The notes beneath the pieces were generated by a model. That model did no database searches and was not told the DNA's origin. It saw nothing but the letters and a program-made list of their open reading frames with translations. From NCBI GenBank assembly GCA_024643795.1, contig JAHEMF010000006.1:22112-86111 (forward strand): a DNA stretch of 64,000 nt, written 5' to 3'. Position 1 is the stretch's first letter; each line of letters opens with the position of its first letter. Of the stretch, positions 22,009-63,183 are shown in pieces. The stretch is from Bacteroidota bacterium (lineage in GTDB: Bacteria; Bacteroidota; Bacteroidia; AKYH767-A; OLB10). The position numbers and the translations under genes are program-made.

Positions 22009-23406
22009 TCATTGAGGTGTTTGCTCTGTCAAGTCAACAGAGTCAAGTTCGTTAATCGGAGTTGCAGGTTTTTTATTTGACTTGTTAAATACAAAGTTAA
22101 TCCCGGCTCTGAATCCGGTTACATTGGCATTTCTATAATTTACCAGCCCAATAATGTTATCAGAGGCAAAGTAAAAATGTCCTCCGGGAAATTTCACAGA
22201 TACACCTGCTCCTATATTCCCTTGACTTTTATTGATGCTGCTGTAGCCGATGGAATAATCGAGCCATTTTTTAATTGAGTTGGTGTAATGTAAATTATAA
22301 CTTATCATGCTTCCTGACGGTGTTTCCCGCCAGTGTAAAACAAGGCCTGTTTTGCCCTTTTTACCTGTCAGGTATTCAACGGAAGTATAAATTTGAGTTG
22401 GCAAACTACTTGAGAATGATTCATAACTTTCCTGAACATTAAATCCATCATAGATAGAGTCTAACATATTTTCTAAAAAGGCCTCAGAGCTGTTACCCTG
22501 ATTGATGAACTCATCCAGATTTAGTCCTTGATAAATCACAGGGCCATCAGATGTAACAGTTGTATAATTCAGGTTGTTGCTTTTCCAGTTTATCTTACCC
22601 AGATCCAATACAGATAGTCCTACTGTAAATTTTTTCCCTGCGTTAATATTTATGCCAAGATCTGCTCCCCATCCGGTATTGTTCCTTTTGAATAAATATT
22701 CACCAGCTGTTAATCCATCGAATGAATCGCTTGAAATACCTGACGTGTATAAACTATATTCGGAATAACCATACAAAGTGAAATCATTCGGGTCAGTATA
22801 TAAATTCACACCCATGCCCTCGCTGTGAATATGTTCCATTCCGTACAAATACTTTATTCTCACTCCCATGCTTATGCTGCTCAATATCTGTCGTGACCAT
22901 GTTAAACCATATTCTCTGTAATGTGAGGCGTCAATTCCGGGATTAATGTTTGCTGAGGTTCCTTGATACGATCCATTGCCATAGTAAAGAAATTCCATCA
23001 TATTTTTTGAAAAAGTTATATCACCGGATATCTTTTCAGTAACATTAATGGTAAAGCAATTATTACCTGCATTGAATCCAAGCCATATCAGATCATTCTC
23101 GGCTGTAACACGCACAGAATTTGTTGTATTCAACTTTTCAATAGTGCCTTCAATGTCCCATATCAAACTATCATTTGATCCTTTATGAATCAGATCGGAG
23201 TAGGTGAATCCATTGTTCTGATACCCAAACATTATGGATGAGGTGAGTGGAAATCCTGCAAAGATCTTTGAATCTGTCATGTAAGCAGGATTTATTTTAT
23301 TTGATTGAGGTGTACCCTGTAAAGTCTGCATCATGAACTCCTGAGCAGGTGAAGTATGGAAGAACATTCCTGACAGAGAAATAGTAAGTAGAATAATCTT
23401 TTTCAT
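22009..23406 (-). CDS. Hypothetical outer-membrane β-barrel-like protein (G/N/S/Y-rich, signal peptide)
   Basis: Has a signal peptide and alternating amphipathic strands. It is the last gene of a three-gene co-oriented cluster. Confidence 0.4.
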   Translation of the reverse strand: MKKIILLTISLSGMFFHTSPAQEFMMQTLQGTPQSNKINPAYMTDSKIFAGFPLTSSIMFGYQNNGFTYSDLIHKGSNDSLIWDIEGTIEKLNTTNSVRVTAENDLIWLGFNAGNNCFTINVTEKISGDITFSKNMMEFLYYGNGSYQGTSANINPGIDASHYREYGLTWSRQILSSISMGVRIKYLYGMEHIHSEGMGVNLYTDPNDFTLYGYSEYSLYTSGISSDSFDGLTAGEYLFKRNNTGWGADLGININAGKKFTVGLSVLDLGKINWKSNNLNYTTVTSDGPVIYQGLNLDEFINQGNSSEAFLENMLDSIYDGFNVQESYESFSSSLPTQIYTSVEYLTGKKGKTGLVLHWRETPSGSMISYNLHYTNSIKKWLDYSIGYSSINKSQGNIGAGVSVKFPGGHFYFASDNIIGLVNYRNANVTGFRAGINFVFNKSNKKPATPINELDSVDLTEQTPQ

Positions 23407-23417
23407 TTCAAATGGAG

Positions 23418-25049
23418 CTATTGGACCTTGATCTTTGCCTTCGCGCCGATCTTTACTTTCAATTTATAATCGGCAAAAAGTTTGATGTTTGTATTGCCAT
23501 CATTTGTGCTGGTTGCAATTCCTGTAATAATTATGTGTTTTGCTAACATCAGATCATTCAGCATTTGTTTTGTAAGGATGTTAGCTGCACTCCTTTTCCC
23601 GGGAATAGTTACTCTTTCTGTAACCGGATCAACTGTGCCGCCGGGAACCTGGATCTCGTTAGAGCTGAAAAGAGTATCTATCGGAGAGTAGTTCTCGTCA
23701 GTAAATACTACTTCAATATTTGAAGACAGAGGGAAGCCGTTGGTTACATCAGTCCTCAGCTCCAGATATTCTACATTTTTCAGGTCATCATAACTGAAGG
23801 GTAATGTGTCACGGATCTTGAAATTTTGAATAGTTCCATAAAGAGGCATCTCTACTGCAACATCAATACTTAGATTTCCTGTACGGGTTAAAAAGTTTTG
23901 AGCTGTTCCATTTGGATTTGTAACTACCCTGCTTTGTGTAAATAAATATCGTGGCTGTTGATTAATTATGCTGCTGACATTACTGTTCTGGTTGCTTAAA
24001 ACGAATCCGGTCAGCTTTGCTTGTCCCAACTCCGGCAATGATGGTGATTGAGTAGGGATAGGGTTAGGAATTCCTGAAACCGGATTAGGATTTGAATTAC
24101 CCAATGCAACCAATTCGGGAAGTGTAATTTCAAGTGGAAGCCCCAGTGAATTATTCAGTTTGAACTCCACTTTTGGGTCTACAATTGTAAATGCACCCAG
24201 GCTTAAAGAGTTGTTAAAAATTGATATTGATAGGGTGTCACGTGGATTGATGAAAGAATTTTGCCCAAAATACCCATACAGAGTTTCATATTCCAGTTTT
24301 TTGATGTCATGGATCATGGTGATCGTTTGACCTGGTGCTATAGTACCGTTTAAATTATTGATGGTAATATTAAAATCAACCAACAATTTATTACCTCCTG
24401 GACCTGCCTTTGTAAAATCAAAATCATATCCGGAAATGGATGTGATTGTGAGTGAAGAATTGTCAGGTTGTATTATTTCATTCGTACCATTTAGTTTTGT
24501 GTTGTTAAGGTGCACATCAGGAAATTCAAATTGCAAATGAATGTCAGCCGGCAGGTTGGTCTGAAGGGACACATCTAATTCACCATTCCAAAACGTTGAA
24601 GAGTCAATTCTGGTACCGGGTGCAAGGTTTAACTCTAAAAGCATTGAACCAGGTATTGTAATTGACCCTAAAGTATTTAATGCAAGAATTTGGCTAGAAG
24701 TGAGTGAAATTGACTCAATAATTCGTTGATCAGGTATTTCGGTCACCATACTTGCGTTCAAACTTGTTGCAGTCCCCCTGTAAACCAAAGTGCAGAACTG
24801 ATTAGGGTCTGTAACCAATACGGTGCCTGAGCCATCAACATGCATGAGGTCTGTTATCTCTAATTCGCTGTATGCCAGTGGAAATGCCAGCTCCGGGGAC
24901 CATTCGGGCTTCCCGAGTGTTGAGAAATCATCTTTTTGGCACGATTGAAACAATATTACCGCCATGAACAGGGGAAAGAGTGTTTTCCATAGGATTCTTG
25001 ATGCTTGATGTATCATTTTCCGGATTATTGGGTTCCGGATATTGTACAA
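23418..25049 (-). CDS. Hypothetical lipoprotein (543 aa)
   Basis: Has a signal peptide with an LFQSC lipobox. No recognisable catalytic motif. Confidence 0.4.
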   Translation of the reverse strand: MYNIRNPIIRKMIHQASRILWKTLFPLFMAVILFQSCQKDDFSTLGKPEWSPELAFPLAYSELEITDLMHVDGSGTVLVTDPNQFCTLVYRGTATSLNASMVTEIPDQRIIESISLTSSQILALNTLGSITIPGSMLLELNLAPGTRIDSSTFWNGELDVSLQTNLPADIHLQFEFPDVHLNNTKLNGTNEIIQPDNSSLTITSISGYDFDFTKAGPGGNKLLVDFNITINNLNGTIAPGQTITMIHDIKKLEYETLYGYFGQNSFINPRDTLSISIFNNSLSLGAFTIVDPKVEFKLNNSLGLPLEITLPELVALGNSNPNPVSGIPNPIPTQSPSLPELGQAKLTGFVLSNQNSNVSSIINQQPRYLFTQSRVVTNPNGTAQNFLTRTGNLSIDVAVEMPLYGTIQNFKIRDTLPFSYDDLKNVEYLELRTDVTNGFPLSSNIEVVFTDENYSPIDTLFSSNEIQVPGGTVDPVTERVTIPGKRSAANILTKQMLNDLMLAKHIIITGIATSTNDGNTNIKLFADYKLKVKIGAKAKIKVQ

Positions 25050-25122
25050 GCTAAAGTGAATGAAAGTTGAACCCTACTGATTCAAAAGTTCAGTTTGTAA
25101 GATTTTATTATAAATGTGATGA

Positions 25123-25716
25123 TTATTGATAGGATACTTTCTCAAAGGTGCCGTTGCTTACAACAATTGAGTCACCTGATCCGGATGTGCTAAAAGCTTT
25201 AAAATTAAATGATCCTTCAACAATGTTCCGAAATTTATCCCACTTGCTAAACGAAATGTTGCCATCATTTGAAATGTATGTTTCGTTTGTACCAAGTACA
25301 GTGTATATAGCTGATCCGATGTTATAGCTGCCTACCTGCTGTGAGCCATCATGAATTATTGAAATGTCTGACCCTCCTGATGAACCGGAAATAAGTAACT
25401 GTTGACTGGTAGTGTTAAGGATGGATGTAACAGTACCTGACGAACTCCAGTTTGTGCTACTTACTAAAGCAGTCATTTTGCTAACACAAGGTGGGCATGG
25501 TCCTCCACAATCAACCAATAGTTCACCTTGATTTAAAATTCCATCGTTACAACTTTCTTCTTCAATAATAGGAACAGGGTCATTACTGTTGCAGGAAGTA
25601 ATCACAACAGTAAAAATCAAAAGAAAAAGGATATTAATAAACCCAAAACCAATAGTCCGTTGATGGGAATTCATATTTTTGTTATCTGCAATAAAATTAA
25701 GGAATATTTTAAACAT
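25123..25716 (-). CDS. Hypothetical lipoprotein with a CNDG…DCGGPCPPC Cys-rich module. The start is probably the internal Met (MNSHQ…).
   Basis: Has a signal peptide with a VITSC lipobox and a four-Cys cluster. Confidence 0.4.
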   Translation of the reverse strand: MFKIFLNFIADNKNMNSHQRTIGFGFINILFLLIFTVVITSCNSNDPVPIIEEESCNDGILNQGELLVDCGGPCPPCVSKMTALVSSTNWSSSGTVTSILNTTSQQLLISGSSGGSDISIIHDGSQQVGSYNIGSAIYTVLGTNETYISNDGNISFSKWDKFRNIVEGSFNFKAFSTSGSGDSIVVSNGTFEKVSYQ

Positions 25717-27648: not shown

Positions 27649-28902
27649 ATGAGTGAGAGATCCTTTGTTTATGAATTGGATAATGGGATGCGGTTGGTAT
27701 ACGCTTACGCGGATAGTCCTGTGTCACATTGTGGTTTGTTGATAGATGCCGGTACAAGAGATGAGCCCCAGGGTAAAGAAGGTATAGCGCACTTTTTGGA
27801 GCATGTTTTTTTTAAAGGAACCGGCAAAAGAAAAGCATACCAGATACTTAATAGAATGGAAACGGTAGGAGGTGAGATCAACGCTTTCACAACTCGGGAA
27901 GAAACATGTATCCACGCCTCATTCATGAATGGATTTTTTGATCGCGCCACTGAGCTGATAAGTGATATAGTTTTTAATTCAACCTTTCCTGAAAAAGAAA
28001 TTGAAAAGGAAAAGGATGTTGTGATTGATGAAATAAACTCCTATTTGGATAATCCGATGGAACAAATATTGGACGATTTTGAAAGTCAGGTATTCAGAGG
28101 AAACCCATTAGGAAACCCAATATTGGGTACCCATCAAACTGTTCGCTCTTTTAGAAGATCTGACCTAGTGAGATTCATCAGAGATAATTATTATTTAGAT
28201 CGTATGGTTTTTTCCTACTGCGGTGCATTGCCTTTTGAGGAAGTAAAAAAAATATTCATCAAATATTTTTCTGAAAAAAATGACCGTAAAGGCAACAATA
28301 TGACCAGACTCAAATTCAAGTCAAGACGTGCAGAAGTGATAAAGCTGAATAAACCATCAGTTCAGGCGCATTATATCTTAGGAGGTACTGCATTTTCTGC
28401 TAAAAGTAATAGACGCATTTCCATGTACCTTCTTAACAATATCCTTGGAGGCCCTGGCCTGAATTCCAGATTAAATATGAATGTGCGCGAAAAACATGGA
28501 TATACTTATAACATCGAATCGTCATATACTCCATTTTCAGACACAGGCTTATTTTACATTTACCTTTCCACCGAACCTAAATTTCTTTCAAAATCAATTA
28601 GTCTGGTGATTCAGGAACTTAAGAAATTAAGGTCTGTTAAAATTTCTGACAGACAAGTTATGCAATACCAAAATCAATTGATAGGCCAAATATCAATTGG
28701 TATGGAAAACAAGTCTAATGTCATGATCAACAATGCAAGGAGTGTTATTTCTTATAACAAACCGGTGCATTTTGATGAAACAGTTAAAAAGATAAAGGAA
28801 GTAAGTAGCTCAGATCTGTTGGAAGTAGCAAACAGGTTGTTGCTTGAAGACAAGCTCGGAAGTTTAACGTTTATGCCGTTAGAAGCGGTATCCTATAGTT
28901 AG
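27649..28902 (+). CDS. M16-family (pitrilysin-like) zinc peptidase
   Basis: Has the HFLEH inverted zincin motif plus a downstream E. Confidence 0.85.
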   Translation: MSERSFVYELDNGMRLVYAYADSPVSHCGLLIDAGTRDEPQGKEGIAHFLEHVFFKGTGKRKAYQILNRMETVGGEINAFTTREETCIHASFMNGFFDRATELISDIVFNSTFPEKEIEKEKDVVIDEINSYLDNPMEQILDDFESQVFRGNPLGNPILGTHQTVRSFRRSDLVRFIRDNYYLDRMVFSYCGALPFEEVKKIFIKYFSEKNDRKGNNMTRLKFKSRRAEVIKLNKPSVQAHYILGGTAFSAKSNRRISMYLLNNILGGPGLNSRLNMNVREKHGYTYNIESSYTPFSDTGLFYIYLSTEPKFLSKSISLVIQELKKLRSVKISDRQVMQYQNQLIGQISIGMENKSNVMINNARSVISYNKPVHFDETVKKIKEVSSSDLLEVANRLLLEDKLGSLTFMPLEAVSYS

Positions 28903-30375
28903 CATGAACCTGTGATCTTGTCGGCGGGTAACACTATAAGGCACCGCTTCATTTACCAGTGAATAGGCTTGGTAATACTCGTTTCTTCTGGAATATGAAT
29001 AACCAAGGTCTATTTTTAGATTTTTTTCTCGAAACCCAATTCCACCACACAAACTTTCAACATGCTGATCAAAACTTTCATCAGTGAAATCACTTTTAAA
29101 AGGGGATGTATAATATGCAGCTCCTGCTCGTAGTGAAATATCTTTTATCCTGATTTCAGCTCCTGCCCTCAATGTGTGATTGTTATTTGTATAGAGCGTT
29201 CTGATGTTGTTGTTCTCTGAAGTAAAATTATAGTCTCCGGCTTTTAATTTCATGGTTGTGTAGTCTGAATATTCATAATCTACACTCAGCAAGCCTGACT
29301 TCCCAAATACAAAACCTAAGCTTCCTACAAATTTGAATGGGGTATTTAAGCTGTATGAATAGAACCCGTCCGGAGAGCTCATAGAATACTGATTTCCATT
29401 AACCACAGAGCGCATGGATGAGAAATACTTGTCATTCATATTGTACCAGGTAGGTGAGTGAATGGCAGCGCCAAGCCTTATACCATTGGTCACTCGTACG
29501 ATCATCCCGAATTTCAGATTAAAACCATTACCACTGGTTTCAAGATATTGATTGTATCGCAAGCTTTTGAAGTCGGCAGAAGAATCGGGGTTGATGATAG
29601 TATTATCTACATCCGTTTCTTCAAAGATCGTTTCTTCTTCATATTTGATATTGGGGAAATTGAATGATAAGCCGAGATTGATCCTGTCGTTATAATTAGC
29701 CCCAAACCCGAACGAGAATTCACCTTGATTACCTTTTGATGAAAAACTCCTGCTTTGTAAAACGTTGCCATTGGGTATGATTGACATGTAATCTCCGGCA
29801 GTGTTTGGTACAGGGTCAATAAGATATGTTTGATAGGCAAGGTTAGCATCAAAAGGATAATAAACAGCCAGTTCAGATACTGAAGCTCCTCCATCAAGAT
29901 TAACTGTTTCTGCAAAATAATCAGTTATTGAATTATTAGGATTTATACCCTGATAATAAGAATTGGTACCCAGATCGTTGGTTCTGTTGTTACCTATTGC
30001 AAATGAGATCTGTTTCCAGTTCGATTGCGACTTATCAATTGGTTTTGCAAGCACAAGGCCAATATTTCCAATGGTGATATTGAATTTGCTGTCATCAAAT
30101 TTTCGGCCTTGGAATTCGCTTTCTGTGAGACGTGATATCCCACCTAATGAAAATGAGAATTCAGAACTTCTGTATACTGCTATTCCTGCCGGGTTCACTG
30201 ACATGGTTGAATAATCCCCTCCTAAAGCTCCGAAAGCTCCTGCCAGACCCATCGACCGGGCCGTGGGACCATAAATACTCTGTGAGTATCTAAGGGCATC
30301 TACTTCATTTTGTGCAAATAAACTCAGAGGAAAAAATAGGCATGTACAAAACATGCCTAAAATGATCTTATTCAT
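28879..30375 (-). CDS. FadL/OmpP1-like (or PorV-like) outer-membrane β-barrel protein
   Basis: Has a signal peptide followed by DALRYSQ…GTARSMGLAGAFGALGGD…NPAG, the N-terminal hatch motif pattern of FadL-like transporters. Length is 498 aa. Confidence 0.5.
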   Translation of the reverse strand: MNKIILGMFCTCLFFPLSLFAQNEVDALRYSQSIYGPTARSMGLAGAFGALGGDYSTMSVNPAGIAVYRSSEFSFSLGGISRLTESEFQGRKFDDSKFNITIGNIGLVLAKPIDKSQSNWKQISFAIGNNRTNDLGTNSYYQGINPNNSITDYFAETVNLDGGASVSELAVYYPFDANLAYQTYLIDPVPNTAGDYMSIIPNGNVLQSRSFSSKGNQGEFSFGFGANYNDRINLGLSFNFPNIKYEEETIFEETDVDNTIINPDSSADFKSLRYNQYLETSGNGFNLKFGMIVRVTNGIRLGAAIHSPTWYNMNDKYFSSMRSVVNGNQYSMSSPDGFYSYSLNTPFKFVGSLGFVFGKSGLLSVDYEYSDYTTMKLKAGDYNFTSENNNIRTLYTNNNHTLRAGAEIRIKDISLRAGAAYYTSPFKSDFTDESFDQHVESLCGGIGFREKNLKIDLGYSYSRRNEYYQAYSLVNEAVPYSVTRRQDHRFMLTIGYRF

Positions 30376-30389
30376 AATTCTGAATTATA

Positions 30390-31979
30390 TTATGGTCTGG
30401 TTCTTCCTGTTGAATTGCTCACATTACCTCTTGAGTTAGATGAGCTGTTTCCACTTTGGTATGAACTTCCTGAGCTCCTGGGACTACTATTTGAACCACC
30501 TACGGAGCTACGACCCGGTTTTGAATTAGAACCATAATTGGAATTACTTGGTCTCGGAGAGCTTTGGTAATTGCCTTTTGGTGCTGAAGGTCGTGGGTTG
30601 CTATTATAACTGCTACCGTTACTTCCTTTAGGATTCACACTGGACCTTGGTTTATTCTGTGTCGGACTACTCTTTGAAGGGGTAGTACTTCTGGGAGTAG
30701 ACTGATAGCTTGGTTGTCCGCTTTTTGAAGGACTGCTGCTTCTTGGTTTGGATTGGTAAGAAGGAGTAGAACTCTTACTAGGCTGAGTAGTGCTCTTAGG
30801 ACGTGGAGTTGACTGGTAGTTATTGCCTTTATCATTTTCAGATTCACTACCTGAAGGTCTGGGGCTGCTAGTGTAAGAATTACTCTTCACAGGAGCAGAA
30901 GAATTCCCTTTCACATCTTTAGATCCGGAATTAGAGGGGCGTGGAGATGATGTATAATTGCCATCCTTATCCTTACTCTCTCCTGAAGTAGAAGAAGGTC
31001 TTGGAGTAGATGTATGATTAGAATTATCATCTCCTTTGTTAACTCCTGTGTTTGCAGGACGAGGTGTTGAAACACTGGATCCTCTTGGACTCTCATTTGC
31101 TGCAGGATTCATTGGTCTGGGATCAGAACTATGGCTGGATATTGCCGCACGCTCGCCCCTGTCAGCAATAACAGTTTGCTGATAAAGTTGTCCTACACCA
31201 GCTGTAGAGTATGGTGAGTAAAAAGTATTTGATCCACCTGAGCTGCCGCCACTGTTTCTGGGCCCATAGTAATAACTGTGGTTATCATAACTATTGAAAT
31301 AGTATGGGTTATTATACCAATTACTATAATAGCCATTATAATAACCTGCATTGTAACCGGCGTAGTATCCGTTATTATAACCGTTCCAATATGAATTGTA
31401 ATATCCGCCACCACCATAACAGCTGTTGCTGCCATACCAAGGATTGTAACTGTATCCACATGGGTTATAACAATAGTTATAATATGGTGTGTAATAAGTA
31501 GGTGTCCACCAGTTATAGGATAAGTATATACTTACACCATACGAATATGGGTTGTAGTTGTACCAGTATGAATTTGTGAACCATCCGTCATAGTAACCAA
31601 ATCCAAGGCTAACGTTTGTGTGAAAACGTCTCAGCCGTGATGAGTATGCATAATCATAGTAATCATCTTCATCATAGTAGTAGTTGTTGGTCACATAGGT
31701 ATTGCCTGCTCCATCCTGTTCTGTGGTTACATTGTCAGGTTGATCATCATATCCGAACCTATCATTATTTTGTTCGGCGGAAGAATAATTCTCAGCTTGA
31801 GTTTGATTTTGTCCTTCATCTCCGTACAAAGCTTCCGGATCCCGGGAACTTTGATTATCATTTGATGAATAATAGACATCGTCATAGTTCTCACTGTTTC
31901 TTGCCATCTTGTTAGAAGATGAACATGAACTGATGGTCACGGCTGACACAGCGATAAGAATAATTGATAAAGCTTTCAT
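30390..31979 (-). CDS. Extreme low-complexity lipoprotein. Domains, N to C: signal peptide/lipobox, an acidic/Q-rich segment, a Tyr/Asn/Gly-rich prion-like segment, and a Ser/Pro/Arg-rich tail with about 10 degenerate (S/T)(S/T)PRP repeats.
   Basis: Sequence features are MKALSIILIAVSAVTISSC, …YYNSYWNGYNNGYYAGYNAGYYNGYY… and STPRP/SSPRP/QSTPRP/NSNPRP repeats. It is co-oriented with, and 15 nt upstream of, the FadL-like gene. Confidence 0.55.
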   Translation of the reverse strand: MKALSIILIAVSAVTISSCSSSNKMARNSENYDDVYYSSNDNQSSRDPEALYGDEGQNQTQAENYSSAEQNNDRFGYDDQPDNVTTEQDGAGNTYVTNNYYYDEDDYYDYAYSSRLRRFHTNVSLGFGYYDGWFTNSYWYNYNPYSYGVSIYLSYNWWTPTYYTPYYNYCYNPCGYSYNPWYGSNSCYGGGGYYNSYWNGYNNGYYAGYNAGYYNGYYSNWYNNPYYFNSYDNHSYYYGPRNSGGSSGGSNTFYSPYSTAGVGQLYQQTVIADRGERAAISSHSSDPRPMNPAANESPRGSSVSTPRPANTGVNKGDDNSNHTSTPRPSSTSGESKDKDGNYTSSPRPSNSGSKDVKGNSSAPVKSNSYTSSPRPSGSESENDKGNNYQSTPRPKSTTQPSKSSTPSYQSKPRSSSPSKSGQPSYQSTPRSTTPSKSSPTQNKPRSSVNPKGSNGSSYNSNPRPSAPKGNYQSSPRPSNSNYGSNSKPGRSSVGGSNSSPRSSGSSYQSGNSSSNSRGNVSNSTGRTRP

Positions 31980-32116
31980 AACTGCCGTTTTTAAATTTGA
32001 CTCATTTAATTTCCAATGGTTTAGCGATAGATTGCTAATATTAGATAACTTTCACAATTTTGTCGCTGATTATGAAATAAACAAATATCATACCAACTTC
32101 TTTTCAAAGTTAATCA

Positions 32117-33592
32117 ATGGCAAAACAACTTACAACGCGCGAACAGAACTACTCTGAATGGTATCAAGACCTTGTGATCAAGGCGGACATGGCTGAGAAT
32201 TCAGCTGTTAGAGGCTGCATGGTCATCAAGCCCTATGGATTTGCAATATGGGAAAAGATGCAGAGTGCACTTGATCAAATGTTCAAAGATACCGGTCATG
32301 TAAACGCATATTTTCCACTTTTTATTCCAAAATCCTTTTTTAGCAAGGAAGCGGCTCATATTGAGGGCTTTGCGAAAGAATGTGCAGTGGTAACACATTA
32401 CAGACTGAAGAATACACCAGATGGGAAGGGAATAGAAGTTGACCCCGAGGCAAAGCTGGAAGAAGAGCTTATTGTACGTCCTACTTCTGAAACTATTATA
32501 TGGAACACCTACAGAAACTGGATCCAATCTTATCGTGATCTCCCAATACTTTGTAATCAATGGGCAAACGTGGTGCGCTGGGAGATGCGAACGCGCTTGT
32601 TTCTCAGAACCGCCGAATTTCTTTGGCAGGAAGGCCACACTGCCCATGCCACAGAAAAGGAAGCCAGAGAAGAAACAATGAAAATGCTTGATGTTTATGG
32701 AACATTCGCAGAAGAGTTCATGGCAATGCCGGTTCTGAAAGGTGTAAAAACAGCCAATGAACGTTTTGCCGGTGCCATCGATACCTTTTGTATTGAAGCA
32801 CTGATGCAGGATGGTAAGGCACTCCAGGCAGGTACTTCCCATTTTCTGGGTCAAAATTTCGCTAAGGCATTTGATGTAAAGTTCACTACCAAAGAAGGTG
32901 TTCAGGAACATGTTTGGGCTACCTCCTGGGGAGTATCAACCAGATTGATCGGAGCCCTTATCATGGCTCATTCAGATGATAATGGTTTAATATTACCTCC
33001 TAAACTGGCACCTATTCAGGTAGTGATCGTGCCAATTTATAAGAATGAAGAGCAACTGGCTCAAATTAGTGAAGTTGCCGGAAAGATTACCTCAGAGCTT
33101 AAAAGCAAGGGCATATCTGTTAAATATGACGACCGTGACACTCATAAACCCGGCTGGAAATTCAGTGAATATGAATTAAAAGGAGTCCCGGTTCGGATTG
33201 CAATTGGTCCCAGAGATATAGAAAATGGTACAGTAGAAGTGGCCAGAAGGGATACGATGGAAAAGACTACTTATCAGCTTATGGATCTGTCATTGAAAAT
33301 TGAACACCTTCTGGATAAGATCCAGCAAAATATTTATACTAAAGCTCTTGAATTCAGAGACGAAACTACACATGTGGCTGATAGTTTTGATGAGTTTAAG
33401 AAGTTGCTTGATACCAAAGGCGGATTCATCAGAGCACATTGGGATGGTACTACAGATACTGAGCTGAAGATCAAAGAGTTAACTAAAGCAACCATCCGTT
33501 GTATACCTTTAAATGAGAAACCTGAAGCAGGCAAATGTATCTTAACGGGAAATCCAAGTATTCAAAGAGTGGTTTTTGCACGTGCATATTGA
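32117..33592 (+). CDS. proS: Proline--tRNA ligase (archaeal/eukaryotic-type ProRS)
   Basis: A 491 aa class II aaRS with a C-terminal zinc-binding-like region, typical of Bacteroidota ProRS. Confidence 0.9.
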
Positions 33593-33607: not shown

Positions 33608-34306
33608 GTGATGTCAGAACCTTCATCTACACACGAGCAAATAATGAAATCTCTCATTGAAAAAGGGGGATTGAAACTTGATGTTTTTAAAAATACTCAG
33701 TTAGCATTTGGTTGGCTTAAATCAAGTTTAAGGGATCTTGAGCTTTCACTTAGGAAGGAAATGCAGAAGATTGATAAACGGGTAGTTATCAAGTATATAG
33801 ATAGGGGCCCCTTTAGTGCAGAATTTAGAATCTCAGATGACGTACTCATCTTTAATATGCACACCAATATCTTCACTTTTCATGAAAGCCATTCAATATG
33901 GCGCACATCTTATGTACAAGATCAGAACCTGCGCACATTCAGTGGTATGATCTCTATTTATAATTTCCTGACAGATTCTCTGAACCTGAACAGGTCTAAT
34001 GATGTTGGATACCTGATTGCTCGGATTTTTGTCAATAAAGAGATGCATTACTTCATGGAAGGCAAGAAGCAGCTGGGTTTTTTATTCAATGATTTTGGAC
34101 ATGAAGTGATAAACGAACTGAAAATTAAGGCAATTGTGGAATCTGCTGTAGCGTATTGCCTTAATTTTGACATATATACACCGCCATTTGATAAAGTGAA
34201 TGTAATATCGGTTCAGGAGGTTACCGAAAGCAGCCTTTCAAATCTGACCGCAACAGGTAAACGACTGGGTTTCAAACTCCAATCAGACTCAGATCTGATA
34301 GAATGA
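33608..34306 (+). CDS. Hypothetical protein (232 aa), 15 nt downstream of proS
   Basis: An ORF with good coding character. No recognisable motifs. Confidence 0.4.
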   Translation: MMSEPSSTHEQIMKSLIEKGGLKLDVFKNTQLAFGWLKSSLRDLELSLRKEMQKIDKRVVIKYIDRGPFSAEFRISDDVLIFNMHTNIFTFHESHSIWRTSYVQDQNLRTFSGMISIYNFLTDSLNLNRSNDVGYLIARIFVNKEMHYFMEGKKQLGFLFNDFGHEVINELKIKAIVESAVAYCLNFDIYTPPFDKVNVISVQEVTESSLSNLTATGKRLGFKLQSDSDLIE

Positions 34307-34388: not shown

Positions 34389-34461
34389 GGCCCGTTCGTC
34401 TAGGGGTCTAGGACATCTCCCTTTCACGGAGGAAACACGGGTTCGATTCCCGTACGGGCTA
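34389..34461 (+). tRNA. tRNA-Glu (anticodon UUC); CCA not encoded
   Basis: I folded a cloverleaf by hand. It has a 7-bp acceptor stem GGCCCGT/ACGGGCT, a T-arm ACGGG-TTCGATT-CCCGT, and an anticodon stem TCTCC/GGAGG with loop CTTTCAC. Confidence 0.85.
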
Positions 34462-34513: not shown

Positions 34514-34768
34514 ATGGCTAACCATAAGTCAGCAATTAAAAGAATCAGATCAAACGAGGCCAAGCAGGTCAGAAATCGTTATCAGGCTAAAACTATGCGC
34601 AATGCTCTTAAGAAAATGAGAGAATTGAATGATAAAAGTGAGTTGACCAAACAACTGCCTGAAATGATGTCAATGCTAGATACATTGGCTAAGAAAAATG
34701 TGATCCACAAGAAGAAAGCTGCAAACCTTAAATCAGGCTTGATGAAAAGGGTCAATGCCTCTGCTTGA
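34514..34768 (+). CDS. rpsT: 30S ribosomal protein S20
   Basis: Has the MANHKSAIKRIRSNEAKQVRNR… N-terminus. Confidence 0.9.
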   Translation: MANHKSAIKRIRSNEAKQVRNRYQAKTMRNALKKMRELNDKSELTKQLPEMMSMLDTLAKKNVIHKKKAANLKSGLMKRVNASA

Positions 34769-34835: not shown

Positions 34836-35543
34836 GTGCTTTTTATCTTTTTTTCAATGGAAAAACCAACCATCAAACACTGGTCAGAAGATGACCGGCC
34901 AAGAGAAAAACTTTTTAGATTGGGTCGGCACAATTTAGCTAATGCTGAATTGATAGCTTTATTGATAAGAACCGGAAGTGGTTCAGAGACCGCCATGGAC
35001 TTAGCTTACAAGATCTTGTACCACTGCAACAATGACCTGCACAAACTATCAAGGTTAAATGCAAATGAGTTGGGAAGGTTTAAAGGAATGGGTGCAACTA
35101 AGGCTGCATGTATTTTGGCAGCACTGGAATTGGGAAAAAGAAGCATAAGTTCAATTCCGAAAAATATTGAACGAATTACTTCAAGCAGTGAAGCATCTTC
35201 CTTACTTTTTTCTCATTTGTCAGACCTTCCACATGAAGAATTCTGGCTCTTGTTGTTAGACAGGTCCAATAATATAATCAGCAAAATACAGTTAAGCAAA
35301 GGTGGGGTATCCGGAACACTGGTTGATCCTAAATTGGTATTTAAATCCGCAGTAGACAACCTGGCATCGGGGATAATTTTGTTTCATAATCACCCAAGTG
35401 GTAACTTAAAGCCCAGTGAATCGGATATCAAGCTAACCACAAAATTGAAAAATGCCGGAAGTGTTTTAGAAATTGCTGTATTAGACCATATAATAATAAG
35501 TTCAAAGGGTTATTTTAGTTTTGCTGATGAGGGGATAATGTGA
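34836..35543 (+). CDS. radC: RadC-family JAB/MPN domain protein
   Basis: Has the HNHPSGNLKPSESD JAMM motif and an N-terminal HhH-like region. The start is probably the internal MEKPT…. Confidence 0.85.
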   Translation: MLFIFFSMEKPTIKHWSEDDRPREKLFRLGRHNLANAELIALLIRTGSGSETAMDLAYKILYHCNNDLHKLSRLNANELGRFKGMGATKAACILAALELGKRSISSIPKNIERITSSSEASSLLFSHLSDLPHEEFWLLLLDRSNNIISKIQLSKGGVSGTLVDPKLVFKSAVDNLASGIILFHNHPSGNLKPSESDIKLTTKLKNAGSVLEIAVLDHIIISSKGYFSFADEGIM

Positions 35544-35578: not shown

Positions 35579-36895
35579 ATGGAAGATCAAAGATTACTTG
35601 TTTCTGTGAAAAGGGTAACCACCCGACTGAGATATACTTTTGATCTTATCTTTAAGGATATTCTGGGAATTGAATATAGTTTTGAGACGGATAAAGATCT
35701 GTTTATTCAATCAAAACAACCTAAGATCACGTATGATGTTCACCCGATTGGAGATGAGTTGTTTTTTTATTCAGCCGGTATCCTCTTTGAAAAGGGCATA
35801 GAGGATCAGAACCTTGCAGTGATTGATTGGGCAGGAACAAAAGGATTGTTTGCGACACATCCTAAATATGTAATTCCGTTTGACCCGTTTGCCGCATCAT
35901 TTTACATGATATCCAGATATGAAGAGTATTTACCACATCACCGGGATATCCACAACAGATACGATGCTACAGAAAGTATTGCATTCAAGAAAGACTTTTT
36001 ACATCAACCTGTAATAGACATATATGCACATGCAATCAGAGACCTGATAACTTCCAGATATCCTCATTTTATTTTTCCAGAGCGGAAATATAAATTCACA
36101 TCTACTATTGACATTGATAATGCATGGGCGTATCTTGAAAAAGGGATACTCAGAACCATAGGTGCTTTTGGTAAGTCTTTGATCAATTTAGATACTGAAG
36201 AGGCCGTAGAGAGGCTAAAAGTCTTATTAAAGATGAAAGCGGATCCATATGATACCTATGACTTCCAGTTAGAGCTTCAGAAGGAGTTGAAATTTAAGGT
36301 CATCTACTTTTTTCTTTTAGGGGAATATGGGACTAATGACAGGAACGTGCCCGTTGACTCCAGAAAGTTACATTCATTGATTAAATCATTGGCCGATTAT
36401 GCAGACACGGGGATACACCCTTCATACGGTTCCAATTCTAATCCGGAAAGGTTAAGGAAGGAACTCCGGATCCTGAACCAGATCTTAAAGCGGGAGGTCC
36501 ATAATAGCCGGCAGCATTTCCTGGTATTAAGGATTCCTGAAACTTATCGCAATTTGATCGACCTCGACATTACCGATGACTATACCATGGGATATGCTAT
36601 CAGACCAGGATTCAGGGCAGGAACCTGCACGCCATTTAAATTCTATGATCTTGATAATGAAGTCAAGACCAACCTGACCATTCATCCATTTGCTGTGATG
36701 GATGCAACATTAAAATTCTATATGAAACTTGAACCATCTGAGGCGATGAGCATAATCGGTCCTTTGATCAGTGAAGTTAAGAAGGTAAGCGGGAACTTTA
36801 TCAGCTTATGGCATAATGAATCGCTAAGTGAAAACAAGATCTGGAATGGTTGGAAAGCGGTATATGAACAACTTGTAAGAGAAGCTGTAGAATGA
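35579..36895 (+). CDS. Hypothetical protein, possibly a divergent polysaccharide-deacetylase (CE4)-like fold
   Basis: Has TIDIDNAW, GIHPSYGS and RQHFL segments reminiscent of NodB motifs. The assignment is weak. Confidence 0.35.
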   Translation: MEDQRLLVSVKRVTTRLRYTFDLIFKDILGIEYSFETDKDLFIQSKQPKITYDVHPIGDELFFYSAGILFEKGIEDQNLAVIDWAGTKGLFATHPKYVIPFDPFAASFYMISRYEEYLPHHRDIHNRYDATESIAFKKDFLHQPVIDIYAHAIRDLITSRYPHFIFPERKYKFTSTIDIDNAWAYLEKGILRTIGAFGKSLINLDTEEAVERLKVLLKMKADPYDTYDFQLELQKELKFKVIYFFLLGEYGTNDRNVPVDSRKLHSLIKSLADYADTGIHPSYGSNSNPERLRKELRILNQILKREVHNSRQHFLVLRIPETYRNLIDLDITDDYTMGYAIRPGFRAGTCTPFKFYDLDNEVKTNLTIHPFAVMDATLKFYMKLEPSEAMSIIGPLISEVKKVSGNFISLWHNESLSENKIWNGWKAVYEQLVREAVE

Positions 36896-60780: not shown

Positions 60781-63183
60781 ATGAAATCAAATCGTGCAAA
60801 AGTACTGACATACCTTTCGCTTCTCTTTATCACTCATATTTTTGGAACTGCTCTGGCTCAAATACCTGCCGGCACGAATGAATCAAATGGAGAATTAGTC
60901 GTTAAGGCACCCTTGCTGTATGATATCTCACATTATAATATAAATATTGACTCTATCAATTTTAGTGCATTTACTATTAAAGCCAACACTAAAGCACGTA
61001 TAGTTGCAAAACAGGCAATTGTTTCTCAAGTAACTTTTGATTTACTAAAATTCACTGTTGATTCAATATTAAGTGGTGGATCAATATGTGCTTACACCTA
61101 TAACGATACATTGTTGACTGTTACCCTTCCAACACCATTGCCAGCAAATGACAGTATTGATGTGGAAGTGTTTTACAATGGTAGTCCTTCTGTTGATGGT
61201 AGCGGATGGGGCGGATTTTATTTTTCAGGATCATTTGCATTTAATCTGGGGGTAGGCTTTGCTGCTAATCCACATAACTATGGTAGAGCATGGTATCCAT
61301 GCTCAGATACGTTTGACTCTAAAAGCCGGTACGATTTTTTCATCACTACTTCTTCGTCTGCAAAAGCTTTTTGCAACGGTTTTCTGGTGCAGCAAATCGC
61401 AAATCCAAATGGTACTATAACCTGGCACTGGAAAATGAATGATCCTATACCAAGCTATCTGGTAAGCATGGCTGTAGGGCCTTATCATACTGTTACCAAC
61501 ACATTGTCCGGAATACCTGTAGAGATCGCATGTCTTGCATCTGATACCAACAATGTGAACGCTACATTTAGCAATCTTGACACAACCCTTACTAAGTTTA
61601 TTGATTCATATGGACCGTACCCATTTGATAAGGTAGGGTATTGCCTTGTTCCATTCAATTCAGGAGCCATGGAACATGCCGCAAGTATTCATATAGGCAG
61701 AGTGTTTGTGAATGGATCGCAATCATATGCTACTTTATGGGCTCATGAACTTTCGCATATGTGGTGGGGTGATAAGGTAACTTGTAAAACAGCTGAAGAT
61801 ATGTGGCTGAATGAGGGCTTTGCGTCATTCAATGAGGCTCTCTATACTCAAAATATATCCGGAGATGTTGCTTACACGAATTGGATCCGGTCCAATCATC
61901 GAAAAGTTTTACAGTTTGCACATACACCGGCAGGTGACGGATCTTATCTCACTTTAAACAATATTCCACACGATTACACATATGGTCAGCATGTTTATAA
62001 TAAAGGTGCCAGCATTGCTCACTCACTTCGTGGAATGCTTGGAGATTCGGCATTCTTCGCTGGTTGTAAGATTTATATGGACAACCATGCCTATGGAAAT
62101 GCAGATAGTTATGATCTGAAAAACGATTTTAATTCCATGCCTACAGTTGATGTTACCAGATTTTTTGATGATTGGGTATTTACTCCCGGATTCCCTCATT
62201 TTTCAGTTGATTCTGTGGCAATTTACATTGGTGCCTTCGATCATGTATATGTGCATACCAGACAAAGAAATGTTGGTAATTCCAACCATCTATATAAGAT
62301 GCCTGTTGAAATTAATCTCACCGATGGAAATAACGACACAACTTTCACGGTGTTGATCGATTCGGTTACAAATGTATTTCACTTCCCGTTGTTGTTCACA
62401 CCAACAATGGTGACCATTGACCGTGATCTGAAAATTACCGATGCTGTGGTTGATTATGAAAAAAATATCAACAGCACTGGCAATAACATCATGTATGAAA
62501 CCAATGTATCTTTAAATGTTCAGGATCCTGGTATTAACGGATCTACGATTAGAGTAGAACATAATTATGTAGAACCTGACGGATTCAAACAATCAAATCC
62601 AGGAATAAGGTTATCAGATTATCATTACTGGACTGTGAAAGGGTTGCTTTCATCAGGTTTTGAGTCTTCTGCCAACTTTACTTATGATGGATCCAACAGT
62701 TCAGTATCCGGTTTTCTGGATAATACCCTTATAACCGGAGTGGAAGATAGTATTGTAATGATGTACAGGGAGGGGTCATGGGATGACTGGAGTCCTGTGA
62801 ACGGTTTCACACTCAATAAAGGAGCCAATTCAATGGATAAACGTGGTAGTGTTATTGTTGACTCCCTTAAAGCAGGTGAATATTGTTTAGGCTATTTTGA
62901 TCATCTGGTTGGGTTGTCTGCAGAGCTAGAATTGAAAAAAATAAAGATTTTTCCTAATCCTGCAAATGAAAAACTGACAGTAGAAATAAACTCTGAGAAC
63001 AAATCTGACCTAAACATTCAGATAACAGATACACGGGGATCTGTTATACTCTATCAAAGAATTTCAAAAAATAGCAGGGAATTTATTTGGGATTCTTCAG
63101 ATGTACAAAGCGGGATGTATCATGTTATTCTTGTTAATAACCAAGAAGCAATAGGTTATGCAAAAGTTATCATTCAAAAATAG
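60781..63183 (+). CDS. M1-family aminopeptidase (aminopeptidase N-like) with a C-terminal T9SS type-A sorting domain
   Basis: Has an HELSHMWWGD…E zinc site and a GAMEH exopeptidase motif. The C-terminus is KIFPNPANEKLTVEI…, a Por secretion tail. Confidence 0.85.
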   Translation: MKSNRAKVLTYLSLLFITHIFGTALAQIPAGTNESNGELVVKAPLLYDISHYNINIDSINFSAFTIKANTKARIVAKQAIVSQVTFDLLKFTVDSILSGGSICAYTYNDTLLTVTLPTPLPANDSIDVEVFYNGSPSVDGSGWGGFYFSGSFAFNLGVGFAANPHNYGRAWYPCSDTFDSKSRYDFFITTSSSAKAFCNGFLVQQIANPNGTITWHWKMNDPIPSYLVSMAVGPYHTVTNTLSGIPVEIACLASDTNNVNATFSNLDTTLTKFIDSYGPYPFDKVGYCLVPFNSGAMEHAASIHIGRVFVNGSQSYATLWAHELSHMWWGDKVTCKTAEDMWLNEGFASFNEALYTQNISGDVAYTNWIRSNHRKVLQFAHTPAGDGSYLTLNNIPHDYTYGQHVYNKGASIAHSLRGMLGDSAFFAGCKIYMDNHAYGNADSYDLKNDFNSMPTVDVTRFFDDWVFTPGFPHFSVDSVAIYIGAFDHVYVHTRQRNVGNSNHLYKMPVEINLTDGNNDTTFTVLIDSVTNVFHFPLLFTPTMVTIDRDLKITDAVVDYEKNINSTGNNIMYETNVSLNVQDPGINGSTIRVEHNYVEPDGFKQSNPGIRLSDYHYWTVKGLLSSGFESSANFTYDGSNSSVSGFLDNTLITGVEDSIVMMYREGSWDDWSPVNGFTLNKGANSMDKRGSVIVDSLKAGEYCLGYFDHLVGLSAELELKKIKIFPNPANEKLTVEINSENKSDLNIQITDTRGSVILYQRISKNSREFIWDSSDVQSGMYHVILVNNQEAIGYAKVIIQK

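Follow-up and report, generated by a model that had tools for sequence, protein, structure and literature searches.

A tyrosine-rich predicted lipoprotein family of uncultured Bacteroidota and its conserved pairing with a FadL-fold barrel

What kind of protein is made of tyrosine, asparagine and glycine over long stretches, and what might it do next to an outer-membrane barrel? The question is raised by a 64,000-nucleotide (nt) stretch of a Bacteroidota genome (GenBank assembly GCA_024643795.1, contig JAHEMF010000006.1, positions 22,112 to 86,111), which is called the window below and supplies all coordinates. The listing of its open reading frames (ORFs) places the gene in question at 30390..31979 on the minus strand, with an ATG start, 529 codons and the stop included; the next ORF on the same strand, 28879..30375, encodes a 498-residue FadL-fold barrel. 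An earlier reading of the letters, the original prediction, had taken the first product for a prion-like, repeat-laden lipoprotein and the two products together for a surface module, a tethered or extruded polymer with its outer-membrane partner. The answer developed here is a different one. Judged by its homologues, the product belongs to an unannotated conserved protein family that has so far been found only in uncultured Bacteroidota. Lipoprotein and barrel form a conserved two-gene unit that is inherited together, with rare exceptions. Much of the Tyr-rich region is kept residue by residue, and the protein is predicted to face the periplasm.

A non-coding or chance ORF is rejected on codon usage and on the existence of conserved homologues. 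The synonymous codon score of the gene is 0.042, within the range (0.006-0.095; 0.061 ± 0.020) of 23 other genes of the window, which bears out the coding character that had been assumed. A word-indexed search finds more than 400 lipoprotein homologues. HMMER, run with a profile of the conserved core only (see below) over 1.84 billion cluster representatives (50% identity), finds 1138 clusters (E ≤1e-3), of which 710 reach ≤1e-10 and 254 reach ≤1e-30; the best 150 of the 1138 share one common architecture (198-661 residues), and none of these 150 is fused to a known domain. Scanning one genome per species yields a confirmed relative in at least 439 species. The named members seen in the homology searches (one of them from a member of the Flavobacteriales) and in a cluster look-up are all entered as 'MAG: hypothetical protein' of Bacteroidota (MAG, metagenome-assembled genome). 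They come from Bacteroidia, Flavobacteriales, Bacteroidales, Lentimicrobiaceae, a Rikenellaceae MAG and Candidatus Pollutiaquabacter, lineages sourced from wastewater, freshwater, sediments and guts; isolates outside those listed may carry the family as well. The only match of the lipoprotein in Pfam and NCBIfam scans is a sub-threshold one of its signal peptide to PG1828_fam_lipo (E 0.066), and other members are likewise without assignment; PDB sequence searches with the lipoprotein profile and with the Tyr-rich segment return chance matches only. With an empty literature search added to this, the earlier statement that no characterised system resembles the pair stands. The protein collection includes an entry with 100% identity to this genome's own barrel (P0121). 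No such entry was found for the lipoprotein, whose best match is 49% identical; the source assembly may have missed its gene or filtered it out, which would be one way in which such families stay invisible.

The order of segments along the protein (lipobox, acidic linker, Tyr-rich region, Ser/Pro tail) is as originally described. Its N-terminus, MKALSIILIAVSAVTISSC, is a signal peptide with the lipobox I-S-S-C. Starting as MKALSIILIAVSAVTISS-C19, the product has the signal peptide, the lipobox and the invariant Cys by which bacterial lipoproteins are recognized, and lipidation is predicted. The corresponding DNA (residues 1-19) is 31923..31979, on the minus strand like every segment that follows; the alignments keep Cys19 in at least 90% of sequences, 80 of 100 homologues show a recognisable lipobox, and AlphaFold2 models residues 2-17 as a helix. 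An anchor-proximal motif, D-D-V-Y-Y-S-S (residues 33-39, 31863..31883), follows 10-19 residues after the lipid-bearing Cys (median Cys-to-DD distance 12), and 100 aligned sequences show no change at its D33, D34 or Y36. Next comes a variable acidic or polar linker (residues 40-84, 31728..31862) of low conservation, with a net charge of zero or below in all 53 scored homologues (0 to -16, median -4; never net positive); in the query, residues 20-94 are rich in N, S, D, Q and E and carry a net charge of -12. The aromatic core proper (residues 85-165, 31485..31727) has 16 invariant columns in the 100-sequence alignment and a majority-residue frequency of 0.70-0.82. Its motifs are, in order, a predicted hairpin TxxDxxGNTYVTNNYY, then DDYYDYAYSxRLRRFH and GYYDxYYTNSYWYxYNPxxWGVSIYxGYNWWxP. 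The Tyr/Asn/Gly/Trp-rich region beyond it (residues 166-224, 31308..31484) varies in length among homologues, as the alignments show, and includes at residues 197-218 (31326..31391) a strict four-residue period, (Y-x-x-G) five times over, reading YWNG YNNG YYAG YNAG YYNG; G200, Y201, G204, Y205, G208 and G212 are each retained by at least 90% of 100 homologues. We know of no such four-residue structural motif in bacterial envelope proteins. A closing motif, NPYY(F/Y)NSYDxxSYYYGPR (residues 225-241, 31257..31307), in which N229 is invariant and Y227, S230, D232, Y237, Y238, G239 and R241 are at least 90% conserved, ends the Tyr-rich part. A Gly/Ser spacer with a short predicted amphipathic helix (residues 242-282, 31134..31256; helix 262-273, (S/T)LxxxYxxxV, with Y266 at least 90% conserved) leads to the tail.

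The tyrosine content is extreme. Of the 147 residues from 95 to 241, 45 are Tyr (31%), 22 are Asn and 16 are Gly; set beside a Tyr content of 4.2% in the rest of the window's proteins, the excess has a binomial P of 1.5e-26, and the highest Tyr content of any 100-residue stretch is 34% in the lipoprotein as against 13% in any other ORF of the window. Residues 166-241 are 34% Y, 20% N, 16% G and 9% S, with one basic and one acidic residue. The 31-34% Tyr is about twice the content of FUS low-complexity domains. Composition is nevertheless only part of what distinguishes the family: in alignments of 20 and of 100 members, residues 31-40, 91-160, 197-212 and 221-241 are conserved individually, not just compositionally. 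The 16 invariant columns and the ~38 conserved at 90% or more (100 sequences) lie mostly in 91-160 and 197-241, and about 100 residues in all are positionally conserved, namely the DDVYYS motif, the Tyr/Trp-rich core, the (YxxG)n period and the YYYGPR motif. Only stretches 161-196 and 213-220 of the Tyr-rich region, which also vary in length, are conserved in composition alone. The description of the product as almost entirely low-complexity is an overstatement, about half of it being correct, and 'prion-like' fits its composition only. Residues 166-241 have the make-up of a prion-like or FUS-type low-complexity domain, whereas the precedence of composition over position that is typical of such domains is not what the alignments of the Tyr-rich core show.

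The tail (residues 283-529, 30393..31133) behaves differently. It is basic, Ser/Pro/Asn/Arg-rich (S 30%, P 13%, N 11%; 33 K+R versus 11 D+E) and predicted to be disordered, with a predicted local distance difference test score (pLDDT) of ~50. There are 13 PR[PSGT] sites in it, 11 of the form [ST][STKND]PR[PSG], at spacings of 8-27 residues and with the consensus Y-(Q/T)-S-(S/T)-P-R-P; composition-preserving shuffling of the tail (5000 times) gives 1.3 ± 1.1 sites and at most 6. The motif that had been reported as about ten (S/T)(S/T)PRP repeats is thus strongly enriched, its number and spacing being those just given. The gene contains no tandem repeat at the DNA level, so the motif is apparently kept at the level of the protein; recent repeat expansion or slippage is rejected as its origin. 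Among homologues the tail is not alignable, yet all 53 that were scored carry a net positive charge on it, and 92.5% of members have K or R as their final residue (the C-terminus is ...GRTRP in the query and ...G-x-R-R in most homologues). Covalent attachment through a C-terminal Lys, in the manner of Lpp, was considered and is unlikely, the last residue being mostly Arg.

How would such a protein fold? AlphaFold2, supplied with the 100-sequence alignment, returns a mean pLDDT of 50 for the lipoprotein. The only confident elements are the signal helix, the hairpin at residues 85-97 (pLDDT ~80) and the helix at 262-273 (pLDDT 81); beyond the hairpin the conserved aromatic core has a pLDDT of ~40 and no predicted fold. 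A core that is conserved but predicted to lack an autonomous fold is most simply read as one that folds on a partner or within an assembly; it is the conjunction of conservation with a pLDDT of ~40 that suggests folding on binding. An assembly could be of the protein's own making. Tyrosines as stickers, an Arg/Lys-rich tail, and an acidic set against a basic block (opposite-charge blocks are found in all 53 scored homologues) could drive a disordered protein into a condensate, gel or amyloid-like state that the barrel only anchors or nucleates; the 31% Tyr of residues 95-241, the Arg/Lys content of the tail and the absence of a predicted fold all accord with this. A sticker grammar of Tyr plus Arg is an established driver of phase separation in FUS-family proteins. 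Self-association of this kind is nonetheless improbable here: a core whose individual positions are so strongly conserved speaks rather for a specific binding structure, and Gln is scarce, unlike in yeast prion domains. Functional amyloid systems such as curli and Fap are built of imperfect 20-35-residue repeats and a dedicated secretion channel of CsgG or FapF type, and the pair does not belong with them.

Another Tyr/Gly/Asn-rich segment has been described in the phylum: EL3 of Bacteroidota BamA is a 38-residue extracellular loop, invisible in cryo-electron microscopy and of no known function (PMC12578637). Residues 166-241 of the lipoprotein have the same unusual composition. The likeness of the lipoprotein to EL3, to FUS-type low-complexity domains and to adhesive proteins is confined to Tyr/Asn/Gly composition and the want of a fixed structure; no sequence match was found with the Tyr-rich segment, and much of the Tyr-rich region here, unlike EL3 or FUS, is conserved residue by residue. 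The compositional echo of EL3 is a lead, not evidence.

If the core is to fold on a partner, the neighbouring gene is the obvious place to look. Neighbourhoods were surveyed in 80 loci from species genomes, in 72 of which the contig reaches far enough for the barrel to be seen. In ~70 of these 72 the barrel gene lies directly downstream of the lipoprotein gene and co-oriented with it, and the pairing that had been proposed is also recovered when one starts from the barrel: the pair recurs in four further contexts, reached from distant lipoprotein and distant barrel homologues. The spacer between the two genes is mostly ~10-250 nt in related loci. In the window it is 14 nt (30376..30389, minus strand, sequence TATAATTCAGAATT), one fewer than had been counted, and contains no terminator-like site. 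Promoter and terminator scans give counts at the level of shuffled sequence, from a scan that does not model Bacteroidota promoters; Rfam shows no RNA element in or beside the pair. Upstream, a divergent intergenic region of 137 nt (31980..32116), which presumably holds both promoters, is shared with proS (prolyl-tRNA synthetase; 32117..33592, plus strand; Pfam domains tRNA-synt_2b and ProRS-C_1, as seen in related loci). Divergent proS accompanies the lipoprotein gene in ~74 of the 80 loci, at 73-83% identity (66% in L079; 90% for a partial copy), across a spacer of ~90-260 nt in nearly all of them and of ~1.6 kb in L022. It is mentioned as context only; no functional link with it is claimed.

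Constant company of this sort can reflect nothing more than an old, stable, proS-proximal block in which the lipoprotein acts alone, for example as a spacer or tether. That proS and further genes are syntenic too speaks for such an account, as do two gut Bacteroidales MAGs, from termite and horse (L057, 5983..8812; L064, 6001..8950), in which the lipoprotein gene is without an adjacent barrel and is followed instead by the gene for a β-helix protein or a diacylglycerol-kinase-like gene; in L057 the neighbouring proS is absent as well. A mirror-tree analysis with partial Mantel tests over 46 genomes shows nothing beyond shared phylogeny and is uninformative as to specific co-evolution (partial r: core-barrel 0.44, core-proS 0.39, barrel-proS 0.51). 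In these same genomes the Tyr-rich core is slightly better conserved than the barrel (mean pairwise distance 0.51 versus 0.58). Against the absence of a link stands the behaviour of the genes beyond: the pair stays adjacent, co-oriented and close while the genes downstream of the barrel change (an M16-family peptidase here; NADH dehydrogenase, LpxK, Skp or GldB/C elsewhere), and the 14-nt spacer has no terminator. We regard two functionally unconnected genes as the least probable of the explanations considered.

The barrel itself has more than 2600 homologues, many of which (at 40-66% identity) have precomputed matches to PF03349 (FadL/Toluene_X); the query has no Pfam match at E ≤0.1, and NCBIfam offers nothing usable. 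Its AlphaFold2 model is confident (pLDDT 87.4) and has the 14-stranded β-barrel with N-terminal hatch plug of the FadL/OmpP1/TodX superfamily. Fold comparison scores it at 33.3 against E. coli FadL, 33.0 against Flavobacterium johnsoniae BamG, 32.9 against TodX, 32.3 against Porphyromonas gingivalis BamG, 31.5 against Bacteroides thetaiotaomicron BamG and 25.2 against PorV; the top Foldseek match is P. gingivalis BamG (E 6e-18; 12-16% identity), the structure set of the fold searches having included the BamG chains 9hiv_F, 9hjm_F and 9n2d_B. PDB sequence searches with the barrel, a 28-sequence profile and the hatch region return no BamG at E ≤10 and chance matches only; together with the PDB searches made with the lipoprotein profile and the Tyr-rich segment, they rule out close kinship to BamG, FadL or BamA EL3 at the level of sequence. 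The gene (28879..30375, minus strand) encodes a signal peptide and a mature N-terminus at Q22. Within the first ten mature residues Q22, D26, A27, R29, Y30 and S31 are invariant in 28 sequences, and further on, in the stretch N61-P62-x-G64, no variation is seen at N61, P62 and G64 while A63 is kept in at least 90%, so that the NPA hatch motif of FadL (N33-P34-A35, numbered as in the titles of PDB entries) is present. Q22 to N61 spans 39 residues versus 32 in E. coli FadL, seven extra. The strands are long and well predicted, the protein being ~80 residues longer than FadL or BamG, and it ends ...IGYRF, with F498 as the last residue at least 90% conserved.

A barrel with these features might be an ordinary uptake channel of FadL type that admits fatty acids or other hydrophobic molecules, the lipoprotein serving as a periplasmic helper, for instance an aromatic-rich acceptor that passes substrates on. 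In favour of this, the hatch residues match those of FadL, homologues have PF03349 matches, and the C-terminal tail of BamG is missing. It is difficult, however, to see why a substrate acceptor should so strongly conserve a long tail that is basic and disordered. Genes for the catabolism of fatty acids or aromatics are not conserved in the vicinity, which is occupied by proS, rpsT, radC and envelope genes that vary. We know of no FadL transporter that requires a lipoprotein. An uptake channel with an accessory protein is on these grounds distinctly unlikely. The relation to FadL, TodX and OmpP1 (PF03349) is one of fold and hatch motif, at 13-16% identity, with the query itself devoid of a Pfam match and its segment from mature N-terminus to NPA seven residues longer than that of E. 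coli FadL; and a conserved lipoprotein gene of its own goes with this barrel, as is not known for FadL-type transporters.

Closer in design is a component of the essential Bacteroidota β-barrel assembly machinery (BAM). There BamG, a FadL-fold protein, grips its lipoprotein partner BamH by the latter's conserved and lipidated N-terminus (PMC12611786, PMC12578637), and paralogues of the two, BamG2 and BamH2 (Bt1785-Bt1786), are encoded as a putative operon (PMC12578637). BamG differs from FadL by a conserved N-terminal extension of ~10-12 residues through the lateral opening, and by a C-terminal tail that contacts BamD (PMC12611786, PMC12578637). The present pair resembles BamG-BamH in the conserved N-terminal segment of its barrel, in a lipoprotein partner with a conserved N-terminal region, and in the pairing of the genes as in BamG2-BamH2. 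It differs in that the barrel has no sequence similarity to BamG, is ~80 residues longer, extends 7 rather than 10-12 residues over FadL at its N-terminus and ends ...GYRF without a C-terminal tail; the lipoprotein, for its part, is predicted to be disordered and has neither the export signal nor the folded domains of BamH. PorV, the shuttle protein of the type IX secretion system (T9SS), is likewise a FadL-like Bacteroidota barrel that binds protein rather than transporting lipids. T9SS is used in this genome (Por_Secre_tail is found in the ORF at 60781..63183), but the lipoprotein has no T9SS C-terminal domain and the barrel is not of PorV type. On account of its shorter N-terminal extension, the missing C-terminal tail, the ~80 extra residues and the lack of sequence similarity to BamG, the barrel is filed here as a separate clade of the FadL superfamily, neither BamG nor PorV; of the original label 'FadL/PorV-like', the first half is the one that fold comparison upholds.

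Barrels dedicated to one lipoprotein exist in other folds. RcsF has a basic, Pro-rich disordered segment and is threaded through OmpA/C/F. LptD is paired with LptE, and the Slam barrels of the type XI secretion system (T11SS) have adjacent cargo genes (PMC9100927, 10.1101/2024.09.26.615229). These barrels are of DUF560, LptD or porin rather than FadL fold, their lipoproteins have folded domains, and there is no sequence or Pfam kinship with the pair described here. Slam/T11SS in particular is set apart by the absence of any Pfam match, by the FadL fold of the barrel and by the disordered C-terminus of the lipoprotein, where Slam has a DUF560 barrel with a periplasmic TPR domain and its cargo lipoprotein a C-terminal β-barrel. 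What is known, in short, is the barrel fold and the existence of barrel-plus-lipoprotein pairs (BamG-H, SusC-D, LptD-E, Slam-cargo); what is new is a lipoprotein family, without detectable relative or annotation, that combines extreme Tyr content, predicted disorder and strict positional conservation.

On which side of the membrane does the lipoprotein lie? Surface lipoproteins of Bacteroidota carry no fewer than two acidic residues among the six positions after the lipid-bearing Cys (PMC12578637). In the query, positions +1 to +6 are S-S-S-N-K-M, and among 80 members with a recognisable lipobox 76 have no acidic residue at these positions, four have one and none has two or more. A T9SS C-terminal domain was not found in the lipoprotein by Pfam scan, and the O-glycosylation motif D-(S/T)-(A/I/L/V/M/T) is essentially absent (median 0 sites per protein). 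From its sequence features the protein is predicted to be periplasm-facing and anchored in the outer membrane; an anchor in the inner membrane is also compatible with them.

These observations bear directly on the surface module of the original prediction, in which the lipoprotein travels to the cell surface with or through the barrel and its Tyr/Asn/Gly region and basic tail form an adhesive or matrix coat. Several points favour it. Its composition is like that of adhesive and low-complexity proteins; the barrel strands are long and well predicted, and the ~80 residues in excess of FadL and BamG are there to be accounted for. BamG and PorV, the two characterised non-transport barrels of FadL fold in Bacteroidota, bind surface-located proteins, and the lipid anchor of BamH reaches the outer side beside BamG (PMC12611786, PMC12578637); the Tyr/Gly/Asn-rich loop EL3, moreover, is extracellular (PMC12578637). 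Set against them are an acidic export signal in none of 80 members, the missing T9SS domain, the scarcity of O-glycosylation sites and the plugged lumens of FadL-fold barrels. To our knowledge, furthermore, no FadL-type barrel exports a 500-residue chain. An extruded surface polymer is left unsupported by these findings and is, as a whole, unlikely.

The explanation that we favour, with a probability of about 0.4, is that a periplasm-facing lipoprotein docks on its own barrel and directs its basic tail toward the cell wall, in the service of envelope architecture or stability. Since an export signal is absent, the lipid anchor would sit in the inner leaflet of the outer membrane, with the protein facing the periplasm. 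The DDVYYS motif and the aromatic core would dock on the cognate barrel and become ordered only on binding, a proposal made because of the precedent of BamG, which clamps the lipidated N-terminus of BamH. The basic tail, of 180-385 residues, would extend into the periplasm as a flexible electrostatic tether, and its charge and C-terminal Arg would favour contact with anionic peptidoglycan or with the inner membrane. The module would thus contribute to the architecture or stability of the envelope rather than to catalysis.

Several considerations weigh against this docking and tethering scheme. Peptidoglycan or the inner membrane as the target of the tether is pure inference. With its NPA hatch motif the barrel may simply be a transporter. 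The rule for the export signal was derived in a few cultured species, and exposure at the surface by another route is conceivable. Of 61 homologue tails only 26, those of closer relatives, show enrichment of the PRP-type motif, which must for that reason be a feature of a lineage and not a functional element of the family. To these are added the barrel-less loci of the two gut MAGs and the silence of the mirror-tree analysis.

A bolder proposal combines elements of the foregoing. The tethered protein, by virtue of its Tyr-rich core and Arg/Lys tail, would assemble into a layer of gel or condensate, on or beneath the outer membrane, nucleated by the barrel; or, in a related version, it would engage BAM through β-signal-like aromatic strands together with its BamG-like barrel. 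The second version is prompted by the many β-signal-like aromatic strands of the lipoprotein, and the Tyr/Gly/Asn loop of BamA, with which it is compared, may do likewise. Such an organiser of the envelope is a long shot, on a par with self-association pure and simple. Either version, if true, would make FadL-fold barrels general docking platforms for lipoproteins in Bacteroidota.

The surroundings of the pair call for brief comment. The gene for the M16-family peptidase (27649..28902, plus strand) is convergent with the barrel gene and overlaps its 3' end by 24 nt (28879..28902); of the related loci only the closest (L001-L003, L005, L009 and L077) retain it as a neighbour. The divergent pairing of proS with a lipoprotein gene rich in Pro codons (the tail is 10-18% Pro) is conserved across orders (loci L001-L086). 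Directly 3' of proS lies a 232-residue ORF (33608..34306, plus strand) without a Pfam or NCBIfam match, conserved but uncharacterised, which occupies the same position in ~50 of 80 related loci at 33-59% identity. Wider synteny is retained even in the distant genomes L081 and L083 and takes in this ORF, a tRNA gene (34389..34461), rpsT (34514..34768), a RadC-like gene (34836..35543) and a DUF7033 gene (35579..36895). Elsewhere in the window a second cluster of outer-membrane appearance (22009..25716, minus strand) encodes a 465-residue DUF5723 protein (E 3e-70), a 543-residue protein (weak DUF4621) whose N-terminus resembles that of a lipoprotein, and a 197-residue DUF6252 protein. The DUF5723 protein, 5 kb away, was considered as a relative of the barrel and rejected, profile comparison showing no kinship; a PDB sequence search with it gave no match.

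The significance of the pair reaches beyond this one genome. As a second widespread, strictly paired combination of a FadL-fold barrel with a lipoprotein, it suggests that such pairing is a general building principle of the envelope in this phylum. The lipoprotein, with ~500 residues predicted to be disordered and yet a conserved core, is a natural case in which folding upon binding can be set against assembly driven by composition, outside the cytoplasm. And a family that current annotation does not see, there being no Pfam or NCBIfam model for it, marks envelope biology that lies beyond the model organisms.

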